Shown here piece by piece: positions 535 through 62,720 of a stretch of 64,000 nt of DNA. How positions within the stretch are numbered: position 1 is the first letter of the stretch; every line of letters begins with the position of its first letter. The translations under genes and the position numbers were made by a program. The notes below the pieces were generated by a model, which worked only from the letters and a program-made list of their open reading frames with translations, had not been told where the DNA came from and made no database searches. Origin of the DNA: Microgenomates group bacterium GW2011_GWC1_46_15 (GTDB taxonomy: Bacteria; Patescibacteriota; Microgenomatia; UBA1400; UBA12028). The stretch covers positions 192,302-256,301 of the forward strand of contig LCLX01000001.1 in the NCBI GenBank assembly GCA_001002285.1. Direction: 5' to 3'.

Positions 535-1362
535 ATGCATTTTGCTCATACTTCCTGTTCAGTATGTGGAAAACTCCTCGAGAGAAGAATGAATTGGATT
601 CTTGAGAACGAACGGCATGAATACAAAACATATTGCTCCAAAGAATGCCAATCGAAGGGGAAAACAAAAAAAGTACAGTGCATATGTGAAAATCCAAAGT
701 GTAAAAAAGAATTTTCTCGAGAGTTAAATGATGTTTCACCACACAATTATTGTTCACGTTCGTGTGCTGTGGCAATAAATAATGTTCTCTACCCAAAGCG
801 CAAAAAGATTACCGTTACTCGTACACCAACACCAAGAATTTCAAAGTATACAAAAGAAAGCATTATTTCTGAGATAAGCCACTTCTTTCAAGAAAATCAA
901 CGCATTCCGTTGAAAATAGAGTTTGCAAAAGAATATTGGATGATCCGCAAATTATTTGGCACATGGAACAGTGCGATACGTACCGCCGGGTTCTCCCCTC
1001 ATTCTCACCGATTCGCACACCGATATAAAGCGAAGGATCAGCACATGTGTGATTCATTGGCTGAGAAAATCATTGATGACTGGTTATTTACACGGGGCAT
1101 CAAACATAAAATCCATGTTCCGTATTATTACAGAAACATGACAGCGGATTTTTCGATAGGGACTACGTTAGTCGAGTATTTAGGGTTGTATGGGAAATTA
1201 CATCGATATGACGTACTTGTTGAGGAAAAACGCAAGTTATGGAAAAGGAGAAAGTTAGACGTTATTGAGATATATCCAGAAGATCTTTTTCCGCAAAATC
1301 AACTTTCTGACGTGCTATCTCCATTATTGATTGACGATATTGTTACTTCTTTTACCGTGTAG
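535..1362 (+). CDS. Cys-rich zinc-ribbon protein with a homing-endonuclease-associated repeat and a C-terminal DUF559/Vsr-like endonuclease-like domain
   Basis: Several CxxC clusters in the first ~90 aa (CSVCGK, CSKEC, CICENPKCKKEF, CSRSC). Central FGTWNSAIRTAGF resembles the FGSWnnAL motif of HNH-associated repeats. C-terminal ADFSIGTTLVEYLG...YDVLVEE...LDVIEI resembles DUF559/very-short-patch-repair-like nucleases. Confidence 0.5.
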   Translation: MHFAHTSCSVCGKLLERRMNWILENERHEYKTYCSKECQSKGKTKKVQCICENPKCKKEFSRELNDVSPHNYCSRSCAVAINNVLYPKRKKITVTRTPTPRISKYTKESIISEISHFFQENQRIPLKIEFAKEYWMIRKLFGTWNSAIRTAGFSPHSHRFAHRYKAKDQHMCDSLAEKIIDDWLFTRGIKHKIHVPYYYRNMTADFSIGTTLVEYLGLYGKLHRYDVLVEEKRKLWKRRKLDVIEIYPEDLFPQNQLSDVLSPLLIDDIVTSFTV

Positions 1363-1592
1363 CACACTCCCCGAGTAACCCCGTGTTTTTGCACAAGACC
1401 TTGCTTGACCAACGAGGCAATATCATATGCCAATGTCCTCCCTGGCGTGGCCGGAAAACGCCTGGCGATTGCGTCAAACGTGATATAAGGGTGATCGGTG
1501 ATGATTGCGAAGATTTCCTGCCTGCGGGGGAGGAGCGCGCGGACAATCTCGGCGTGCAACTCTGGAGAGATGAGGGGCGGATTTTGCAACAT
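1299..1592 (-). CDS. LexA-type winged-helix DNA-binding domain protein (97 aa, no S24 peptidase domain)
   Basis: LPRRQEIFAIITDH...ITFDAIARRF...TPGRTLAYDIASLVKQGLV aligns by eye with the E. coli LexA N-terminal domain (LTARQQEVFDLIRDH...AEIAQRLGF...HLKALARKGVI). The 3' end overlaps 535..1362 convergently by 64 nt. The start codon lies inside the 10-bp repeat array. Confidence 0.45.
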   Translation of the reverse strand: MLQNPPLISPELHAEIVRALLPRRQEIFAIITDHPYITFDAIARRFPATPGRTLAYDIASLVKQGLVQKHGVTRGVCYTVKEVTISSINNGDSTSES

Positions 1593-1645
1593 CTAGCAAT
1601 ATTATGTAGTATTCAGCAGTATTGTGCAACATTATGCAATGATAT
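1586..1645. repeat. six tandem 10-bp helically phased direct repeats, consensus GCA(A/G)YATTnT
   Basis: Read directly: GCAACATCTA / GCAATATTAT / GTAGTATTCA / GCAGTATTGT / GCAACATTAT / GCAATGATAT. Lies between the wHTH gene start (1592) and the helicase-nuclease start (1713). Contains TTGCAA-N17-TAGTAT and TTGTGC-N15-TATAGA promoter-like spacings. Confidence 0.7.
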
Positions 1646-1712
1646 AGAGTTTTACAAACAAAGCGGATAGTTTCTCCTTCCCATTCGCCTTTTCATAGGG
1701 TATAACACATAT

Positions 1713-4700
1713 ATGCCCTCGCAATCTCCTTTAAAGAAACCACAGGAAAAATCCAATGCCGTGTTTTCTTCTCTCTACTCCAAACTTAATCCTGAGCAAA
1801 AGAAGGCGGTTGACGCAGTTGAAGGGCCAGTCATGGTATTTGCGGGTCCCGGTACGGGGAAAACACAAGTGTTGGCGATGCGCGCGGCCAACATTCTCAG
1901 AAAAACAGATGTCGGTCCGCACAACATTCTCGCGCTCACCTTTACCGAGTCGGCTGCAAAGGCGATGCGGGATCGGCTTATCTCGATCATCGGTGAGGAT
2001 GCGTACTATGTGAACATCGCGACGTTTCACTCGTTCTGTTCTGATGTCATTCAGTCAAACCCCGAGTTTTTCCCATTTTCCCGTGACGCAGAGCCATTAA
2101 CCGACCTCGAGCGGTTTACGATCGTTGAAAACATTATCCGCGAGCAGGCATTTGAGGCAATCAAGCCCATCAACAGTCCCATATTTTATGTTCGCGACTG
2201 TATTAAAGCGATGCAGGACTTAAAACGGGAGAACGTTGAGCCAGATGATTTCCGCAAATTGATTGAGTATGATGTGCTTCAATTGAAGAAAGCGGAAAGT
2301 CTGCCAAAAACAGAGCAAAAGCAGCGGGAGAAAAACATTGCCAAACAGCGCGAACTTCTCCAAGTATATGTGTTATATCAGCAAAAACTCCGTGAGATGG
2401 GACGGTATGACTACGAAGACATGATTTCGTTCGCGGTCCACGCGTTTGAACAAGATGAAATACTCCTACGGAGTTATCAAGAGCGTCTGCAGTACATCTT
2501 GGTTGATGAGTACCAGGATACGAATGCGGCGCAAAATAAAGTATTAGAGTTGCTCGCCTCCTATTGGGGAAAACAGGCAAACGTGTTTGTCGTGGGCGAC
2601 AGCGATCAGAGCCTGTATCGTTTTCAAGGCGCCTCTTTGGAAAACAGTGTGGCATTTGTGAAAAAGTACCCAACCGCGTTGTTTATCACGTTGACGAAAA
2701 ACTACCGGTCTACGCAGACCATTTTGGATGCCGCCACAGAACTCATCGCAAAAAATAATTTTACGCATGCGACATTGTTGGAAAAATTTCAAAAAATCAG
2801 TGCAAAAAAATCTACAAGGACTTCGGTTCCGCTCTCCGCAACAGTGTCATATCCTGCTCAGCCGGTTTATGTAGCCGCGTTTTCATCTGATCTTGCTGAA
2901 ACGGCGTATATCGCTGAAGAAATCAGCACGCTCATCAAAAAAGGCACGAATCCAAGCGAAATTGCAGTGTTGTACCGCACGAATAACGATAGTGCGGCAA
3001 TTGAAGACGCGTTGGTAAAATGGGAAATTCCATATGAAATCGACAGCGGTGTAGATATTTTGGACTCGCCAGTGGTCATGCAGCTGCTCACGCTTTTTCG
3101 AGTGATTTACGATTTGCGCACCACACGAGAAGCGATTGATTTATTCACGGTGTTGAACTATGAATGGGTTGGTTTGGATGCGCTTGATCTTCTCAAACTC
3201 TCGCGCCACGCGGCAGAAAAGAAACAATCATTGTTTGACATTGTGCAGGGAAACGAAATCAAAGCACTTCAATTGAAGAAAGCGAAAGAAACCATCGCGT
3301 TTGTGCAAAAACTTATTCAGTGGTCGAAAGATGATGCGCAAAAAACATTCCCGCTTTGGTTTGAAACGGTGCTGAACGACAGCGGATTTCTCTCCTGGGT
3401 TTTGAAACGGAATGACGCTGCGGAAGCGATTAATAAAATCCAGTCATTGTTCCGTGAAGTAAAAATACAAACTTCAGTTGATAAAAGTACAAAGCTGGAA
3501 ACATTTTTACGCACAATTGAACGTATGCGGGAGCATCGCATTGCGGTGAACGAAGAGGTATTGCAGCTCCAAAGAAAAGCGGTCAAGCTTGCGACCGCGC
3601 ACAGCGCGAAAGGTCGGGAGTGGGAGTACGTGTTTATCATCCGCGCGATAGATGGCAAGTGGGGAAATACACGGTCTAAAGACCTTATTCCACTTCCCGA
3701 AGGTGTCTTGCGGTACACGAATATTGAAGAAAAAGAGAAAAATGAAGATGACCGGCGGGTGTTTTATGTTGCGCTCACCCGCGCCAAAAAACGCGTTACC
3801 GTAACGTATGCAAAAACATCGGTTTCCGGAAACAGAACAAAAGAAAACACCCAAACATTGTTTATTGAAGAAATTCCGGAGAAACTAAAAAAAGAAGTTG
3901 ACACGACGTCGTTTGAACAATCCGCCAACGCGGTTCTCGCGAAGCTTCTTCACGCTCCGGTCAATCAAACACAGACGATAGAGGAAAACGAGTGGCTTTC
4001 TGGACTGCTTGAGAACTTTGTGCTTACGCCGACAACGCTCAACACATATCTTGAGTGTGCGTACAAGTTCAAACTGAATACATTGGTGAAAGTTCCACGT
4101 GCGAAAGAGGATTACTTGGCGTTTGGAACGGCAATTCATAAAGCGTTGGAAATGTTGTTTCGGTCGTTTATCGAAAAAAATAAGATTCCATCAAAGGAGT
4201 TTGTGATTGGTGAGTTTGAGAAAAGCCTGCATAGAGAAATTATGACGCAGGATGAGGAAAAAGCGCGGTTGAATCAAGGCAGAAAAGTGTTGTCGGCATA
4301 CTACGACGAGTATACATCGCAGTTTGCCAAGCCGGTCTTTTTGGAAAAATTCTTGGGGTATGGATGGCCACGCATCTATCTCGACGATATCCGAATTGGT
4401 GGCCGCATAGATAAAATTGAGTGGGCGGACGATGCGCATAAAACCGTGACCGTTGTGGACTACAAAACTGGCCAGCCAAAAACACGTGGAGAGATTGAAG
4501 GAAAAACAAAAACATCCAATGGTGACTACAAACGCCAACTTCTGTTTTACAAATTATTAACAGATCTTGACCGCAGCTTTGGACATAAAGTTGAAAAAGG
4601 CATGTTTGATTTTATTGAGAAAGACAAGCAAACGGGAAAATTCAGGCGCGAAGAGTTTTTTTTGCCAAAAGAAGAAGTGGATGGATTACGGAAAATTATT

Positions 4701-4847
4701 AAAGATGTTATGGGGGAAGTCCGCGCGCTCTATTTCCCGCGGACAACACACTACAGCGTATGTAAAGAGTGTGAGTTTGCCCAGCACTGCTGGCCCGATG
4801 GCATTCCAGAGCAAAAAGCGGAACAAATGAAACTTATCTCTTCTTAA
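1713..4847 (+). CDS. UvrD/PcrA-family SF1 helicase fused to a C-terminal RecB/Cas4-like PD-(D/E)xK nuclease with Cys cluster (AddA-like helicase-nuclease)
   Basis: Walker A AGPGTGKT, VDEYQDTN, TKNYRST, VALTRAK helicase motifs. C-terminal GGRIDKIE...VVDYKTGQ (RecB nuclease motif III-like) and the cysteines of CKECEFAQHCW. Confidence 0.85.
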   Translation: MPSQSPLKKPQEKSNAVFSSLYSKLNPEQKKAVDAVEGPVMVFAGPGTGKTQVLAMRAANILRKTDVGPHNILALTFTESAAKAMRDRLISIIGEDAYYVNIATFHSFCSDVIQSNPEFFPFSRDAEPLTDLERFTIVENIIREQAFEAIKPINSPIFYVRDCIKAMQDLKRENVEPDDFRKLIEYDVLQLKKAESLPKTEQKQREKNIAKQRELLQVYVLYQQKLREMGRYDYEDMISFAVHAFEQDEILLRSYQERLQYILVDEYQDTNAAQNKVLELLASYWGKQANVFVVGDSDQSLYRFQGASLENSVAFVKKYPTALFITLTKNYRSTQTILDAATELIAKNNFTHATLLEKFQKISAKKSTRTSVPLSATVSYPAQPVYVAAFSSDLAETAYIAEEISTLIKKGTNPSEIAVLYRTNNDSAAIEDALVKWEIPYEIDSGVDILDSPVVMQLLTLFRVIYDLRTTREAIDLFTVLNYEWVGLDALDLLKLSRHAAEKKQSLFDIVQGNEIKALQLKKAKETIAFVQKLIQWSKDDAQKTFPLWFETVLNDSGFLSWVLKRNDAAEAINKIQSLFREVKIQTSVDKSTKLETFLRTIERMREHRIAVNEEVLQLQRKAVKLATAHSAKGREWEYVFIIRAIDGKWGNTRSKDLIPLPEGVLRYTNIEEKEKNEDDRRVFYVALTRAKKRVTVTYAKTSVSGNRTKENTQTLFIEEIPEKLKKEVDTTSFEQSANAVLAKLLHAPVNQTQTIEENEWLSGLLENFVLTPTTLNTYLECAYKFKLNTLVKVPRAKEDYLAFGTAIHKALEMLFRSFIEKNKIPSKEFVIGEFEKSLHREIMTQDEEKARLNQGRKVLSAYYDEYTSQFAKPVFLEKFLGYGWPRIYLDDIRIGGRIDKIEWADDAHKTVTVVDYKTGQPKTRGEIEGKTKTSNGDYKRQLLFYKLLTDLDRSFGHKVEKGMFDFIEKDKQTGKFRREEFFLPKEEVDGLRKIIKDVMGEVRALYFPRTTHYSVCKECEFAQHCWPDGIPEQKAEQMKLISS

Positions 4848-56476: not shown

Positions 56477-58351
56477 GTGGGCATCATGGCTTCCCAAATT
56501 GAAGAGATAAAATCGGCGGTTGACATTGTGCAGGTGATTGGCGAGCGCGTGAATCTCACGAAGGCGGGAAAAAACTTTAAAGGCCTGTGTCCGTTTCATT
56601 CAGAGAAAACGCCATCGTTTTTTGCAACGCTAGAAATTCAACGGTATAAATGTTTTGGATGTGGCAAATCGGGTGATGTGTTAACGTTTGTGCAGGAGTA
56701 TGACTCGCTCACGTTTGTTGAAGCGTTGGAGATGTTGGCAAAACGCGCCGGCATTATGTTAGAAAGGCAGGCGTTTAGTCCCGAAGATGCCCACCGCAAA
56801 CGGTTGTATGAAGTTCTCCACCTCGCGCGTGAGTACTTTCATTATGTTTTAACGGAACACAAACTGGGTGAACCCGCCCGTAAGTACTTGAAAACCCGCG
56901 GTATTACGAGTGAAACGATTAAAACATTTGGACTTGGATACGCGCCGAACTCATGGGATGGGTTGTACAACTATTTAGTAAAGAAAAAAAAGTATGATGT
57001 GCGTGAGCTTGAAGATGTTGGATTGGTGATCCGCAAAACAGGCACGCGAGGCACAAGTAGTGGTATCGGTGCGGGTGATGTGTATGATCGTTTCCGTGGC
57101 CGTATCATGTTTCCATTGACCGATGCTCAAGGAAAAGTGGTTGGTTTTTCCGGCCGTGTGCTTGATCCGGAAATTAAAGAGGCGAAGTACATCAACTCGC
57201 CGGAAACGCAGTTGTATCACAAAAGCGAGTTATTGTTTGGCTACTCGGTACTCAAAAACTTTATCCGCAAAGAAGAGGAAGTGCTGGTTGTTGAAGGAGA
57301 ACTGGACGCGTTGTCCTCGTACCAGGCCGGTGCGCAGAACGTTGTGGCGATTAAAGGCTCTGCGCTCACCGAAAAACAGGTGCGGTTGTTGTCGCGTTCG
57401 GTGAAACGCGTGATTTTGGCGCTGGATGCAGACTCAGCTGGTGTTGAAGCAACCAAGCGCGCGATTGAAACTGCCCGCCCGTTTGAGTTAAGCCTACGCG
57501 TGCTTCCTCTCGTTGGCGGCAAGGATCCCGACGTGATCGCGCGCGAACAACCAAAAATCTGGCGCGACATGGTCAAAAAAACCGCCTCGGTATATGCATT
57601 TCTCATTGACTCTTCGTTTACCGCGCATGGTGATGAAGGTAAAACTGGTGAAGGCAAACGGCTTATTACTAACGAAGTCATTCCCGTGCTTGCTTCGATT
57701 CAAAACTCGGTGGAACAGGCGCATTTTCTTGAGTACGCGGCCGAACATTTAGACGTCAAACAAGAGGCATTGGAAAAAGAGTTGGAAAAGTATTTGCAGA
57801 AGCGCAAATTCTCCCCCGGTTTTACGCCTCGGAATACACCACCGCAGGAAAACCAAGACATACGAAAAAACCCAACGGTATTGTTCACCAGCCGCACGTC
57901 TCTAGAGCGGTATTTGTGCTCTTTACTCCTGCGTTTGGAGCCGGCCGACGTGCAAAAATATGTGGTACAACTCCTTGATATTGGTGTGCAGGAGCCCGTG
58001 ATCGCCAAACTCATCAAACACCTCGCGCGGTTTATAGAAACACAGCCACTCGACCTCACCAAATTTGCCCAGTCTTTGCCAGAGGAACTCCGGCAGCCGT
58101 TATCCGACTTGTATCTCGAGTTTGAAGATGATGATAGCAATGTCATTAAGGAGTTTGAAAAGGCCCGCCGGCGCCACGCGGTTTTGGCGCTTAAGGAGCG
58201 GATGCAGGAAATCGCGCACACAATGGCGGAACTTGAACAAAAAACACTGCAAACCGCTGAAGAAGAACAGACATTCAAAAGCTTGCAGGATGAGTTGGTG
58301 CTCGTTGGCGAAAAAATCCAAGTTTTTGAGGGGGAAAACGGGCCATTATAA
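56477..58351 (+). CDS. dnaG: DNA primase
   Basis: CHC2 zinc finger KGLCPFHSEKTPSFFATL...YKCFGCGKSGD; Toprim VVEGELDALS; followed by rpoD. Confidence 0.85.
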   Translation: MGIMASQIEEIKSAVDIVQVIGERVNLTKAGKNFKGLCPFHSEKTPSFFATLEIQRYKCFGCGKSGDVLTFVQEYDSLTFVEALEMLAKRAGIMLERQAFSPEDAHRKRLYEVLHLAREYFHYVLTEHKLGEPARKYLKTRGITSETIKTFGLGYAPNSWDGLYNYLVKKKKYDVRELEDVGLVIRKTGTRGTSSGIGAGDVYDRFRGRIMFPLTDAQGKVVGFSGRVLDPEIKEAKYINSPETQLYHKSELLFGYSVLKNFIRKEEEVLVVEGELDALSSYQAGAQNVVAIKGSALTEKQVRLLSRSVKRVILALDADSAGVEATKRAIETARPFELSLRVLPLVGGKDPDVIAREQPKIWRDMVKKTASVYAFLIDSSFTAHGDEGKTGEGKRLITNEVIPVLASIQNSVEQAHFLEYAAEHLDVKQEALEKELEKYLQKRKFSPGFTPRNTPPQENQDIRKNPTVLFTSRTSLERYLCSLLLRLEPADVQKYVVQLLDIGVQEPVIAKLIKHLARFIETQPLDLTKFAQSLPEELRQPLSDLYLEFEDDDSNVIKEFEKARRRHAVLALKERMQEIAHTMAELEQKTLQTAEEEQTFKSLQDELVLVGEKIQVFEGENGPL

Positions 58352-58377
58352 ATGCCATTATAGGTGCCATTATAAAT
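58342..58377. repeat. three tandem 12-bp repeats GCCATTATA(AA/GG)T
   Basis: GCCATTATAAAT GCCATTATAGGT GCCATTATAAAT; the first copy encodes the dnaG C-terminus and stop; abuts the rpoD -35. Confidence 0.7.
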
Positions 58378-58453: not shown

Positions 58454-59803
58454 ATGCCCAAGAAATTACCCAAGAAAACTATGCCAAAAAAAACCGTTTC
58501 CCACAAAAAATCCGGGGTTCGAACGAAGTCCGGGTTTAAAAATACACCAAAAACTAAAAACATACAATATAGTGTCTCTAAACACGCTGCTTTTAAACAC
58601 GGTGCGTCGAAGCAGGGTGTTTCCAAGCAAAATACTCCTAAGCAAGGTGCGTTTAAACAGTCAACCTCTCCGCGGCCAGCTCCAGTAACACTCTCTGCCC
58701 GCAAAGAAGCCCAAGCGAGTGCGCTCAAACAACGCATCGCCGATCTTCTCAAACGCGCGAAAAACCAAGGATTTATCACACAGGAAGAAATTCTCGGTGT
58801 ATTTGCATATCCCGAAGATCACCTCAAGGAGTTGGATGGGTTATACGGCACCATGTTTACCGCGGGTGTAGACGTGTTCGAGACCGTTGAAGAAGAGCAG
58901 ATGAAGGAAGATTCTGGCGTCATTTCTGACCTGGAGAAAGAACTCGAAGTATTGTCTACACTTGATGACCATTCCGTTGCCGACCCCGTCCGCATGTACT
59001 TGAAAGAAATCGGCCGCATTCCCCTGTTGACGCGCGAAGAAGAAATTGACTTGGCGCAGAGAAATGACGGCGGCGATCCGGTTGCAAAACAGAAGCTCAT
59101 TAATGCAAACCTGCGTCTAGTGGTTTCAATCGCGAAAAAATACATTGGCCGTGGCATGACATTTTTGGACCTCATTCAAGAGGGTAACAAAGGATTAATC
59201 CGCGCGGTTGAAAAATATGACTGGACGAAAGGGTTTAAGTTTTCCACATACGCAACGTGGTGGATCCGCCAAGCCATTACCCGCGCGATTGCCGATCAGG
59301 CCCGCACCATCCGTATTCCCGTTCACATGGTTGAAACGATCAATAAGTTGATGCGCGTCTCCCGCAAGCTTATGCAGGACTTGGGCCGCGAGCCAACCGC
59401 CGAGGAAATCGCGGACGCGATGGAAGGCATTGACCCCGACCGCGTGCGCGAGATTTTAAAGATTTCACAAAAAACCACGTCGTTGGAAACACCGATTGGA
59501 GACGATGACGATTCCTATTTGGGTGACTTTATTGCCGATGATACGCAGACCTCGCCGTACGATGCCACGAGCAAGCGGTTGTTGAAAGAAAACATTGAAG
59601 AAGTATTGAGTGCGTTGACCGACCGTGAGGCCAAGGTCTTGAAAATGCGGTTTGGACTAAACGGCGCTCGCCCGATGACGTTGGAAGAAGTTGGTCAGAA
59701 GTTCGGCGTCACGCGCGAACGTATCCGGCAGATTGAGGCGAAGGCGCTGCGAAAGCTCAAGCACCCGAGCAAGCGGAAAATGCTCCAGGATTACTTGGAG
59801 TAG
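58454..59803 (+). CDS. rpoD: RNA polymerase sigma factor RpoD (sigma-70) with an unusual Lys-rich N-terminal extension
   Basis: Regions 1.2-2.4 ([27 protein letters not shown]; [18 protein letters not shown]...[17 protein letters not shown]) and region 4 ([15 protein letters not shown]). Start at the ATG of MPKKLPKK (the track starts at a TTG 18 nt upstream). Confidence 0.9.
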
Positions 59804-60935: not shown

Positions 60936-61619
60936 TTGAACATGGGTTACTTTGGAAATTTGGAAAAGAAAATACAGGCGCAGCAATTAAGAAAAAAGGG
61001 CTTGTCCTACTCTGAAATCAAAAAACGCATTAATGTTCCTAAAAGCACTTTAAGTAATTGGTGTCGAGACATTGCACTTACCGAAGGACAAGCTCTTCGA
61101 CTTTTTAAGAATAAACTTACAGGTTCAGCTCGCGGACGAATAATAGGAGCAAAACGCCAACAGGCAAAAAGATTACGACAAATTTCCGATATGTTAACTG
61201 AGGGGAGGAAAGAAGTAGGGTCTTTGTCGACAAGAGACGTATTCATTGCGGGAATTTGTTTGTACTCTGCTGAGGGAACAAAAAGGGACAAGGCGTGTGG
61301 TTTTGCCAACAGCGATCCTTTGTTGATAAAATTTATGGCAAATTGGTTTAGAAAATTTTGTCATGTTTCGGAAGAAAAATTTAGGGGAGCAATTTGGATT
61401 CATTCGGGTTCTGATTATCGGAAGGCAACACACTATTGGTCTAAAGTTGCTGGTATACCAACATCACAATTTCTCAAACCATATATCGTAGCAAATAAAA
61501 CAGAGAGTCGAAAAATTCGGAAAAATATCCATCCATATGGAGTATTTTCCATCAGATTTTCTGATGCAAAAATTCATAGAAAAATAATGGGATGGATCTC
61601 TGGAATACTCGATTCCTAG
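60936..61619 (+). CDS. HTH-domain protein, possible free-standing LAGLIDADG-type homing endonuclease
   Basis: N-terminal HTH (LSYSEIKKRINVPKSTLSNWCRD). FIAGICLYSAEGTK resembles a LAGLIDADG motif followed by a beta-rich region; weak, by eye. Ends 34 nt before the intron-containing tRNA-Asn. Confidence 0.35.
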   Translation: MNMGYFGNLEKKIQAQQLRKKGLSYSEIKKRINVPKSTLSNWCRDIALTEGQALRLFKNKLTGSARGRIIGAKRQQAKRLRQISDMLTEGRKEVGSLSTRDVFIAGICLYSAEGTKRDKACGFANSDPLLIKFMANWFRKFCHVSEEKFRGAIWIHSGSDYRKATHYWSKVAGIPTSQFLKPYIVANKTESRKIRKNIHPYGVFSIRFSDAKIHRKIMGWISGILDS

Positions 61620-61652: not shown

Positions 61653-61982
61653 TCCCCGGTAGCTCAGCCTGGTAGAGCGGGAAGCTGTAGCGTACTGCAG
61701 CCCTTTTTAGCGATGAAAAGGGAAACACAGGGTGAATTCAGGGAAGCCTTCGCTAGTGGTGAAAATCAATAGCATGGTAATCCTGAGCCAACTCCGATGA
61801 ATGGAATAAACGTAGTCGGAAGGGTGCAGAGACTAGGAGTGAGGATCCAACCAATACTCTCCAGAAGCGCCCTGCTCCAACATTATTTCGGTAGCGTTGG
61901 ATGAAGAGATAGTCCACACTTTATGGAAACATAAAGAGCATGTGTAACTTCAAGGTCCAAGGTTCAAATCCTTGCCGGGGAG
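61653..61982 (+). tRNA. tRNA-Asn: tRNA-Asn (anticodon GUU) interrupted by a group I intron
   Basis: Exon 1 61653-61688 (TCCCCGG acceptor, GCTC-AGCCTGGTA-GAGC D-arm, GGAAG, CUGU). Exon 2 61945-61982 (UAA, CTTCA, T-arm CAAGG-TTCAAAT-CCTTG, CCGGGGA, discriminator G). The spliced anticodon loop CUGUUAA equals the canonical tRNA-Asn loop. Confidence 0.75.
61689..61944 (+). ncRNA. group I self-splicing intron (~256 nt) in the tRNA-Asn anticodon loop
   Basis: P1: exon GCUGU pairs with the internal guide GCAGC (61697-61701), with U.G at the splice site. AAAGGGAAAC (P4-like). GGGUGCAGAGACUAGGAG (R element, P7 5' strand). GAAGAGAUAGUCCACAC (S element, P7 3' strand). The intron ends with G before exon 2. 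Closely resembles cyanobacterial tRNA-Leu intron core sequences. Confidence 0.75.
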
Positions 61983-62006: not shown

Positions 62007-62720
62007 ATGAAACCTTCTGAAAGAAAACAAAGATTGGTTGAAGAGTTAGCCGATCTTTATGAAAAATTAGATACCAATAAACTTTATGGTTTTCCGAACC
62101 AAAAAGATACACAACAATGGCTAGCAAACGTGGCATCTGTTCTAAAAAATTTAGATGAAAGCGATTATCAAGAGATTGTTAGATTAAGTAAAACTGTTGG
62201 CCTTTCTGAATCTCGTGAAGAAAGAAAAAAGGCAGCTAAGGAAATTAATCAGTTTTTAGGGCGCAAGGTTGCTGAGTATAAAAGATATGATTTTGGTTAT
62301 CTAGATAGAAAAGTTGAAGATTATCCTGAAGATATTACAAATTATGTCCACGACAAAGAATTAAGAGGTAGATGCCTAGATTTACTTCAAGCTAGTTCAA
62401 AATTCGATAGGGTTATCAATCAAGCAACGCAGGTACTGGAAGATCGAATCAGAACTAAATCTGGTTTGCAAGAGCATCTTGTTGGAGAAGCATTAGTCAA
62501 TAAGGTACTTAATCCAGATTTATCAAAAACAGTGATAAATATTTCTAGTGATGCTGATGAACACCAAGGATTCTGTAATATATGTCGTGGCATGATGGGA
62601 ACATTTAGAAATCCATCTCACCATCATTTAACAGACACAATTACAAGAGAAGAAGCATTCAAGGTTTGTGCCTTTGTGGATACGTTACTTTCTATTCTGG
62701 AGCGGGCTAAAAATGTATAA
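62007..62720 (+). CDS. Hypoth_Ymh (TIGR02391)-like C-terminal domain protein with HEPN-like Rx4H motif; putative abortive-infection/toxin component
   Basis: C-terminal QATQVLEDRIRTKSGL...GFCNICRGMMGTFRNPSHHH...EEAFKVCAFVDTLLSIL matches the TIGR02391 pattern (F..G..IRNP.AH) recalled from memory. Confidence 0.45.
   Translation: MKPSERKQRLVEELADLYEKLDTNKLYGFPNQKDTQQWLANVASVLKNLDESDYQEIVRLSKTVGLSESREERKKAAKEINQFLGRKVAEYKRYDFGYLDRKVEDYPEDITNYVHDKELRGRCLDLLQASSKFDRVINQATQVLEDRIRTKSGLQEHLVGEALVNKVLNPDLSKTVINISSDADEHQGFCNICRGMMGTFRNPSHHHLTDTITREEAFKVCAFVDTLLSILERAKNV

Follow-up and report, generated by a model that had tools for sequence, protein, structure and literature searches.

A tandem array of 10-bp direct repeats as the probable autoregulatory operator of a stand-alone Fic-derived winged-helix protein in a Patescibacterial genome

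CccR, a Fic protein of Yersinia pseudotuberculosis with a helix-turn-helix (HTH) domain, represses its own promoter through 10-bp boxes (AGATAATCAT) near the −35 and −10 elements (PMC9755527). SoFic of Shewanella oneidensis binds the 100 bp directly upstream of the gene that encodes it (bioRxiv 10.64898/2026.07.09.737422). The 68-aa BldC protein of Streptomyces forms head-to-tail multimers on direct repeats, one per DNA turn (PMC5859096; PMC11963761). Here we analyze a locus within a 64,000-nt stretch (the window) of Microgenomates group bacterium GW2011_GWC1_46_15 (contig LCLX01000001.1, positions 192,302 to 256,301), where the gene for a 97-aa winged HTH (wHTH) protein starts inside an array of six 10-bp direct repeats at 1586–1645. 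To our knowledge, hardly anything is known of the sites that transcription factors bind in Patescibacteria (the candidate phyla radiation, CPR), which are hard to culture. A preliminary description of the locus proposed an SOS-like module in which a LexA-like repressor uses the array to control itself and a divergent helicase-nuclease gene. Comparison with related loci leads us to a different conclusion. The array is probably the cognate, private autoregulatory operator of the adjacent protein, a Fic-derived wHTH that would bind it head-to-tail with one monomer per turn.

The 10-bp periodicity is real. Read on the forward strand, the units are, in order, GCAACATCTA, GCAATATTAT, GTAGTATTCA, GCAGTATTGT, GCAACATTAT and GCAATGATAT. 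At a lag of 10 the array matches itself at 33 of 50 positions, the highest value among all 60-bp segments of the 64 kb, and only three overlapping segments, all at the array, reach it. The site is the strongest 10-bp-periodic stretch of the window. Other lags are at background, except for a weaker signal at lag 13 (23/47) that 78 segments reach. Tandem Repeats Finder (TRF) reports the core (1596–1640) with period 10, 4.5 copies, 68% matches and a score of 41; the array is therefore degenerate, not perfect. In line with this, GCARYATTNT, which had been said to occur six times, is exact in three of the six units and has one to three mismatches in the remaining three. The family consensus of the unit on the same strand is GCAAYATYWT.

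A position weight matrix (PWM) built from the arrays of orthologous loci (L001, L006) ranks the window array far first, at 44.7 bits over five phased units. The next unrelated site in the 64 kb scores 5.3 bits (mean −49, s.d. 12). As the preliminary description stated, the array covers the start of the wHTH gene, whose start codon falls within unit 1, and the ATGTTGC (Met-Leu) at this start is kept in homologues. A weak seventh unit may extend the array into the coding region: the equivalent sequence in the related locus L016, GGCAGATTTG, was called as a unit, and the three-unit (k = 3) match at 1576–1605 scores 19.5 bits. Rfam gave no match at E ≤ 1 across 1100–2000, which leaves an RNA-element reading of the array without support.

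The relatives of the 97-aa protein identify it as a stand-alone copy of the C-terminal wHTH of SoFic/CccR-type class II Fic proteins. By tblastn, those closest to it are the C-termini of Patescibacterial Fic open reading frames (ORFs) of about 320–365 aa, at 52–54% identity. These carry the HPFADGNGR Fic motif and the class II inhibitory-helix (α-inh) motif SARIEGN. Their source metagenome-assembled genomes (MAGs) are labelled Patescibacteria or, in bulk MAG records, Gammaproteobacteria/Pseudomonadales. The window DNA itself is matched in assembly GCA_001001445.1 (LCKN01000007.1) and in several groundwater metagenome contigs. A word-indexed search returned five close homologues only (62–97 aa), and a profile search returned 233 clusters at 50% identity, roughly half of them about 330 aa long and half 60–145 aa. 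Long family members match Pfam Fic at E values of 1e-16 to 1e-20. The Fic protein of L023 aligns with SoFic (3eqx, 9tch) at E = 2e-15, and this alignment enters the first wHTH helix (...LLPRREEIFHIIQDHPY...).

The Fic catalytic domain is not in the 97-aa polypeptide, nor in the other stand-alone proteins (L001, L005, L007, L026, L028, L030, L032–34, L038 and L043). In a neighbour-joining tree of the domain (64 residues), solo wHTH genes have at least four origins among their Fic-fused relatives. The dN/dS of the wHTH gene against its relatives, 0.06–0.08 at dS 0.45–1.2, indicates strong purifying selection. Eight further proteins of about 110–145 aa (P0032, P0035, P0044, P0045, P0048, P0055, P0102 and P0131) join an (S/T)xxxE(G/N) inhibitory helix, as in '...SARIEGN...', directly to the wHTH, and the Fic catalytic core is missing from all of them. 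They could be antitoxin-like minis that combine inhibitor and repressor, or gene fragments.

Arrays accompany this family well beyond the window. For each family gene, we took the best lag-10 score (of 40) within −120 to +30 of the start; a metagenome scan contributed 43 loci. Across 34 solo or Fic-fused genes the mean is 27.2/40 and 33 of them reach at least 20. Control gene starts of the same loci (n = 277) average 14.9, and six reach 20 (Mann–Whitney p = 1.8e-21). Lag 10 alone is raised at the family starts, with lags 7–9 and 11–13 at background. In 33 of the 34 genes, which occupy many genomic contexts, four to eight phased 10-bp repeats adjoin or run across the start codon. With rare exceptions the array is the sole strongly periodic stretch of its 2–12-kb locus; L001, L005, L014 and L039 each have one further, unrelated periodic segment. 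L057, excluded from the periodicity counts, shows no obvious array by eye. Every stand-alone gene with upstream sequence (L026, L028/31, L030, L032, L033, L034, L038, L043/44 and L063/64) has four to eight phased units close by its start. Full-length Fic-wHTH genes carry arrays too, with GCAACATCTT five times in L054 and GCAATATTAT three times in L047.

The array is also kept as the proteins diverge, so the conservation in orthologous intergenic regions on which the preliminary description had staked its case was found. With upstream regions written in a 10-bp register anchored on the ATG, L015 and L016, which are close relatives, each differ from the window array at three of 60 bases, although dS of the wHTH gene is 0.45–0.88. 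L001–L006 encode 72-aa proteins (65–68% identical) directly downstream of ruvC-ruvA-ruvB, and L007/8 encodes a 62-aa protein (55% identical) in an unrelated context; both groups keep the array. The ATG lies inside the last unit in all of these loci. L005 and L006 encode an identical protein behind six and seven units, respectively, which indicates that array length changes in 10-bp quanta. The neighbours of the wHTH gene vary (ruvB, a pseudouridine synthase, DUF2130 or the Fic gene itself) and the array stays. It is found after ruvB (L001–6, L032), beside the helicase gene (window, L016), upstream of full-length Fic-wHTH genes and in other contexts (L007, L026, L030, L033, L034, L038, L043). 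On the domain tree it persists through repeated loss of the Fic domain.

Could the periodicity be a promoter or DNA-shape feature, made of stacked −35/−10-like hexamers, phased A/T tracts that curve the DNA, or slippage repeats? A 10-bp array of units bearing TTGCAA and CATAAT automatically yields −35 and −10 hexamers at 16–18 bp spacing. Furthermore, a collection-wide search for three GCAAYAT at 10-bp spacing found perfect tandem repeats in 25 viral contigs (L070–L094; phage and giant virus) with no wHTH-family gene within the fetched flanks. One of these, L088 13098–13124 (GCAACATTAY four times), is near-identical to the window unit. The DNA motif alone is thus not diagnostic. Several observations speak against an origin in promoter sequence or shape. 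Among the 277 other gene starts of these AT-rich genomes, just six show comparable periodicity; the arrays are degenerate, unlike newly formed slippage products; they survive repeated Fic-domain loss; and the first bases of the unit change with a residue of the recognition helix. We consider this explanation very improbable.

The family unit can be written NN-A-A-Y-A-T-Y-W-T, and its first two bases vary by lineage, in step with the recognition-helix residue, Arg52 in the window, that is directly N-terminal to the conserved Thr/Leu. At loci with Arg, the majority base at unit position 1 is G in 19 of 19 cases (as GC, GT or GA). At loci with Lys, Ser or Thr it is G in none of 16. Lys goes with CT (7/7), Ser with two pyrimidines (7/8) and Thr with AG (L032). 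The Arg/G state sits on about four separate branches of the neighbour-joining domain tree, and in L032 the change from R to T occurs together with the change from G to A, inside an otherwise Arg/GC clade. This covariation is the strongest indirect sign that the wHTH domain reads the repeats.

The unit also gives the array a direction. With a PWM from 42 units of forward-oriented (Fic-type) arrays, the window array reaches 38 bits on the forward strand and 4–6 bits on the gene strand, so the forward-strand reading of the unit made earlier is the canonical orientation. By the same matrix, L016, L001, L005/6, L028 and L032 share the inverted orientation of the window. Inverted polarity is present without a divergent gene too (L001), and is thus not due to the helicase gene. 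At 1584–1589 a TTGCAA palindrome marks the junction where forward-strand unit 1 (GCAACATCTA) overlaps a gene-strand unit, GCAAAATCCG (1588..1579). The sequence ATGTTGCAA (Met-Leu-Gln) is common to Fic genes with forward arrays (L023, L024) and solo genes with inverted arrays (window, L028). The overlap and the common start may be a trace of array inversion.

The array coincides with the predicted promoter of the wHTH gene. A Shine-Dalgarno (SD)-like motif is absent from 33 of the 44 long ORFs of the window. Of 45 genes, 13 have a TAnnnT hexamer that ends exactly 6 nt upstream of the ATG, and 21 have one ending 4–10 nt before it, compared with 9% of random positions. Given the few SD motifs and this spacing at gene starts, leaderless transcription appears to be common, or mostly the rule, in this genome; recA, by contrast, has an AAGGAG SD. 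The probable −10 box TAATAT, which ends 6 nt before the wHTH ATG, would imply a leaderless wHTH mRNA. The sole σ70-like match in 1250–1800 is TGCACA-16-CATAAT on the minus strand (1628..1601). Units 1–5 cover the predicted wHTH transcription start site (TSS) and ATG, the −10, the spacer and the −35, and their occupancy should therefore exclude RNA polymerase.

Combining this anatomy with the precedents of CccR, SoFic and BldC, we propose the following mechanism. Each 10-bp unit would bind one wHTH monomer, whose Arg52, at the N-terminus of the recognition helix, would read the first base of the unit, G. Successive monomers would bind cooperatively in a head-to-tail arrangement, one per helical turn. 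Occupancy over the start codon/TSS, −10 and −35 would then exclude RNA polymerase, resulting in cooperative negative autoregulation. We infer from sequence the binding itself, the ratio of one monomer per unit, repression as the sign of the effect and leaderless transcription.

The wHTH protein might instead bind the array as an activator or at an architectural, pho-box-like site, either for positive autoregulation or by bending DNA to stimulate the divergent helicase promoter. In the forward loci L033, L035, L054 and L013 the array ends 10–30 bp before the ATG, covering the −35 and upstream sequence and leaving the −10 free, as class II activator sites do. Relative to the likely helicase TSS, the window array spans about −68 to −127, which fits upstream activation. 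In the window, L001, L005, L023, L024, L028 and L032, however, units overlap the start codon/TSS and the −10, which suits occlusion. CccR, the only characterized relative, is an autorepressor, and the spacing between array and helicase gene is not conserved. Activation is therefore unlikely in our judgment, and autorepression remains the reading we follow.

The divergent gene was correctly described as a helicase-nuclease of the UvrD-Cas4 type, with matches to UvrD, UvrD_C and PDDEXK_1. This neighbour is found only in 92%-identical relatives; on the comparison of loci, the helicase-nuclease is not part of the conserved module. Its promoter had been placed at TTGCAA-N17-TAGTAT (1584–1612), within the array. 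Both hexamers are present, yet they match the consensus at 4 + 4 of 12 positions, below the scan threshold, and would give a 100-nt leader atypical of this genome. We rejected this candidate in favour of a leaderless promoter with the −10 box TATAAC. From the genome-wide spacing between −10 and ATG, the core promoter of the helicase gene likely lies at about 1678–1706, over 30 bp away from the array. Beyond the repeats, the intergenic sequence (1646–1712) is near-identical between the window and L016 despite near-saturated synonymous sites in the wHTH gene (dS 0.88). This constraint could reflect the helicase promoter or another site.

An SOS-like regulon, in which a LexA-like repressor uses the array for the divergent helicase-nuclease gene and perhaps other repair genes, has several attractions. 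The array lies in the 120-bp intergenic region common to the two genes, and repair genes are close by, with the helicase gene on one side, recA at the left edge of the window (start about 117, minus strand) and, in L001–6 and L032, homologues directly after ruvCAB. The LexA resemblance is also not imaginary: hhalign against the Escherichia coli LexA N-terminal domain gives 59% probability and 30% identity over 61 columns, in an alignment that takes in the RQxEIFxxIxDH motif and the ...KG...RG... wing. We regard this match as equivocal. The best fold matches of the 97-aa protein are the MecI, MarR, ArsR, Fur and MotA wHTH domains (classic H-H-H-wing topology); LexA is not among the top 50–60, nor does it rank high by sequence, and there is no Pfam LexA match. 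The protein is a wHTH only, with no S24 peptidase or autocleavage domain by Pfam, and its nearest relatives are Fic C-termini.

The behaviour of the array argues against the SOS reading as well. It stays with the wHTH in non-repair contexts and at Fic genes, whatever the neighbour, and in the ruvB loci it follows ruvB and does not precede ruvC. The likely promoter of the helicase gene, a leaderless one, is outside it. In L016 an 8-bp indel just distal to the array, on the helicase side, removes any phasing to that promoter. No second array was found in the 64 kb, including upstream of recA (118–534) and of a second UvrD/PcrA gene (8532). We also searched the window for a regulon with three PWMs, including orthologue- and family-derived ones, using 1, 2, 3 and 5 phased units. 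Nothing above shuffle level appeared outside 1576–1655; the best outside match at k = 2 scores 15.3 bits, and shuffles reach 16.8. We therefore hold an SOS-like role to be highly unlikely. From the preliminary description, an autoregulated operator of direct, not palindromic, repeats stands as the best reading; the SOS, LexA and helicase-control parts do not. An attractive but unsupported SOS-regulon annotation is thereby removed from this window.

Feature coordinates at the wHTH–helicase locus are collected in Table 1.

Table 1. Features of the wHTH locus and its divergent neighbour (window coordinates; −10, −35 and operator assignments are predictions)
Feature	Position	Strand	Remarks
Stand-alone winged-helix protein, 97 aa	1299..1592	−	recognition helix residues 51–63, Arg52 at helix N-terminus
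wHTH start codon	1590..1592	−	inside unit 1; ATGTTGC reads GCAACAT on the other strand
Possible weak seventh unit, GGCGGATTTT	1576..1585	+	wHTH codons 3–6; weak
Array of six 10-bp direct repeats, putative operator	1586..1645	+ (opposite to wHTH gene strand)	periodicity, orthologue PWM
Probable −10 box TAATAT, wHTH promoter	1599..1604	−	6 nt before ATG, in unit 2
Probable −35 hexamer TGCACA, wHTH promoter	1623..1628	−	in units 4–5; promoter scan
Probable −35 of helicase gene, TTCCCA	1678–1683	+	spacing inference
Probable −10 box TATAAC, helicase-nuclease gene	1701..1706	+	6 nt before ATG; final C non-consensus
UvrD-type helicase fused to PD-(D/E)XK (Cas4-like) nuclease	1713..4847	+	UvrD + UvrD_C + PDDEXK_1

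Several points weigh against autoregulation through this array as we propose it. Because the units hold hexamers that resemble a −35 (TTGCAA) and a −10 (CATAAT) box, some of the periodicity is possibly promoter sequence. The solo protein has no recognizable oligomerization domain. An exact 10.0-bp period, set on a helical repeat of 10.5 bp, drifts by about 100 degrees over six units. CccR binds two inverted boxes 26 bp apart as a back-to-back dimer, whereas here there are four to eight tandem direct repeats at 10-bp spacing. The array points away from the gene in the window clade and toward it in the other 28 loci. The covariation counts ignore phylogenetic kinship, and the domain tree was built from 64 residues. 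Between the window and L016 the entire 120-bp intergenic region, not the array only, is near-identical, so conservation among close relatives is not array-specific. As a sign of selection, array conservation in the 92%-identical relatives is weakened accordingly. Finally, four distant Fic-wHTH genes from plasmids of proteobacteria and Bacteroidota (Fulvitalea, Sinorhizobium, Enterobacter and Paracoccus) have no array, with lag-10 scores of 15–17/40. Because of these four genes, the tandem architecture looks specific to the Patescibacterial subfamily.

A broader model can be drawn from these observations, and we offer it as speculation. The Patescibacterial SoFic-type wHTH might be a self-contained, re-programmable repressor/operator cassette that forms a head-to-tail polymer on 10-bp arrays, with residue 52 setting unit base 1 and Fic paralogues thereby mutually insulated. 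The recurrent solo copies, including the forms that join an inhibitory helix to the wHTH, might then regulate Fic AMPylases in trans, in an antitoxin-like or immunity role, and would not be mere remnants. The solo protein could thus influence Fic paralogues that share its unit type. In the window no Fic motif, and no Fic paralogue that could serve as such a target, occurs in any frame.

Some neighbouring features deserve mention. In L001–L006 and L032 (and in L031, with a hydrolase gene inserted), the solo wHTH gene lies immediately downstream of ruvB and converges on a PBP1A gene. The ruvC-ruvA-ruvB order is seen where upstream sequence exists, and the ruvB-wHTH-PBP1A synteny is kept though the unit type differs (GC in L001, AG in L032). 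In L026 (5094–5168) and L030 (5466–5543), the wHTH ORF as set by gene callers extends upstream across the array, which is thereby read as protein ('...HLAILRNFMQYY...'); the true start is likely the ATG just after the array. In the window, a gene at 535–1362 (forward strand) for a 275-aa protein with a Zn-ribbon and an HNH_repeat (homing-endonuclease-associated) match separates recA from the wHTH gene. It converges on the latter, and the two 3' ends share 64 bp (1299–1362). The recA/HNH_repeat/wHTH arrangement is the same in L016 and L017–L022, and the 275-aa gene may be a mobile insertion.

Two elements lie far from this locus. Rfam detects a full-length group I catalytic intron at 61677–61936 (forward strand; 89.7 bits, gathering score 50), which sits between ORFs 60942–61619 and 62007–62720. 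At 58342–58377, three 12-bp direct repeats (GCCATTATAAAT, GCCATTATAGGT and GCCATTATAAAT) straddle the end of ORF 56486–58351, about 75 bp upstream of ORF 58454–59803. They may be another direct-repeat operator.

Sequence comparison alone thus yields a protein family, a predicted operator, an operator grammar (10-bp head-to-tail units, in four to eight copies, next to a leaderless start) and a candidate rule that links a residue to a base. The regulatory half of Fic-wHTH enzymes appears to have repeatedly become an independent gene. These results extend the recent finding of autorepression by CccR and SoFic by adding a different operator architecture. We found no description of a tandem direct-repeat operator of a Fic-wHTH protein in the open literature.

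How does the locus compare with other regulators that coat repeats? LexA shares the wHTH topology and is an autoregulated repressor adjoining repair genes, autoregulation being a prediction here; the 97-aa protein differs in that it lacks the S24 autocleavage domain and has neither a palindromic box nor, within the 64 kb, a regulon. The wHTH domains of OmpR and PhoB read tandem 10–11-bp direct repeats head-to-tail on one helix face, with six OmpR on ompF F1–F3 and PhoB on pho boxes. They act mostly as activators, from sites that lie upstream of the −10 box. Unlike them, the 97-aa protein has neither a receiver domain nor a Trans_reg_C match (Pfam, NCBIfam). ParR-parC, TubR-tubC and the omega-heptad system place 7–12-bp direct-repeat arrays over the promoter of the coating protein's own gene, with cooperative autoregulation. 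These are plasmid partition or copy-control systems with partner NTPases, and ParR and omega have the ribbon-helix-helix (RHH) fold. The arrays described here differ from such partition and iteron systems in their chromosomal, housekeeping contexts (recA, ruvCAB, tRNA synthetases, PBP), with no partition or replication genes nearby.

BldC and Xis/RdfS-type proteins come closer in form. Like the 97-aa protein, they are very small single-domain proteins with no dimerization domain that occupy variable numbers of direct repeats as cooperative head-to-tail multimers, about one per turn of the DNA, a mode of occupancy that is predicted here. Their folds are MerR-like or excisionase, whereas the 97-aa protein is closest to MecI, MarR and ArsR, and BldC controls a regulon, whereas only a private site beside the gene is seen in the 64 kb. 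The resemblance to BldC is, by analogy, functional only. CccR and SoFic are closest by descent. Their DNA-binding domain is homologous to the 97-aa protein, and their site falls no more than ~100 bp upstream of their own gene, over the −35 and −10, with a 10-bp box. The reverse complement of the window unit (AAGATATTGC) resembles the CccR box, a comparison made here that serves as a lead only. The window polypeptide differs from both in lacking the Fic domain. On the best reading of these comparisons, the tandem direct-repeat operator would be a novel form of the known Fic-wHTH autoregulation of CccR and SoFic, accompanied by recurrent Fic-less derivatives.

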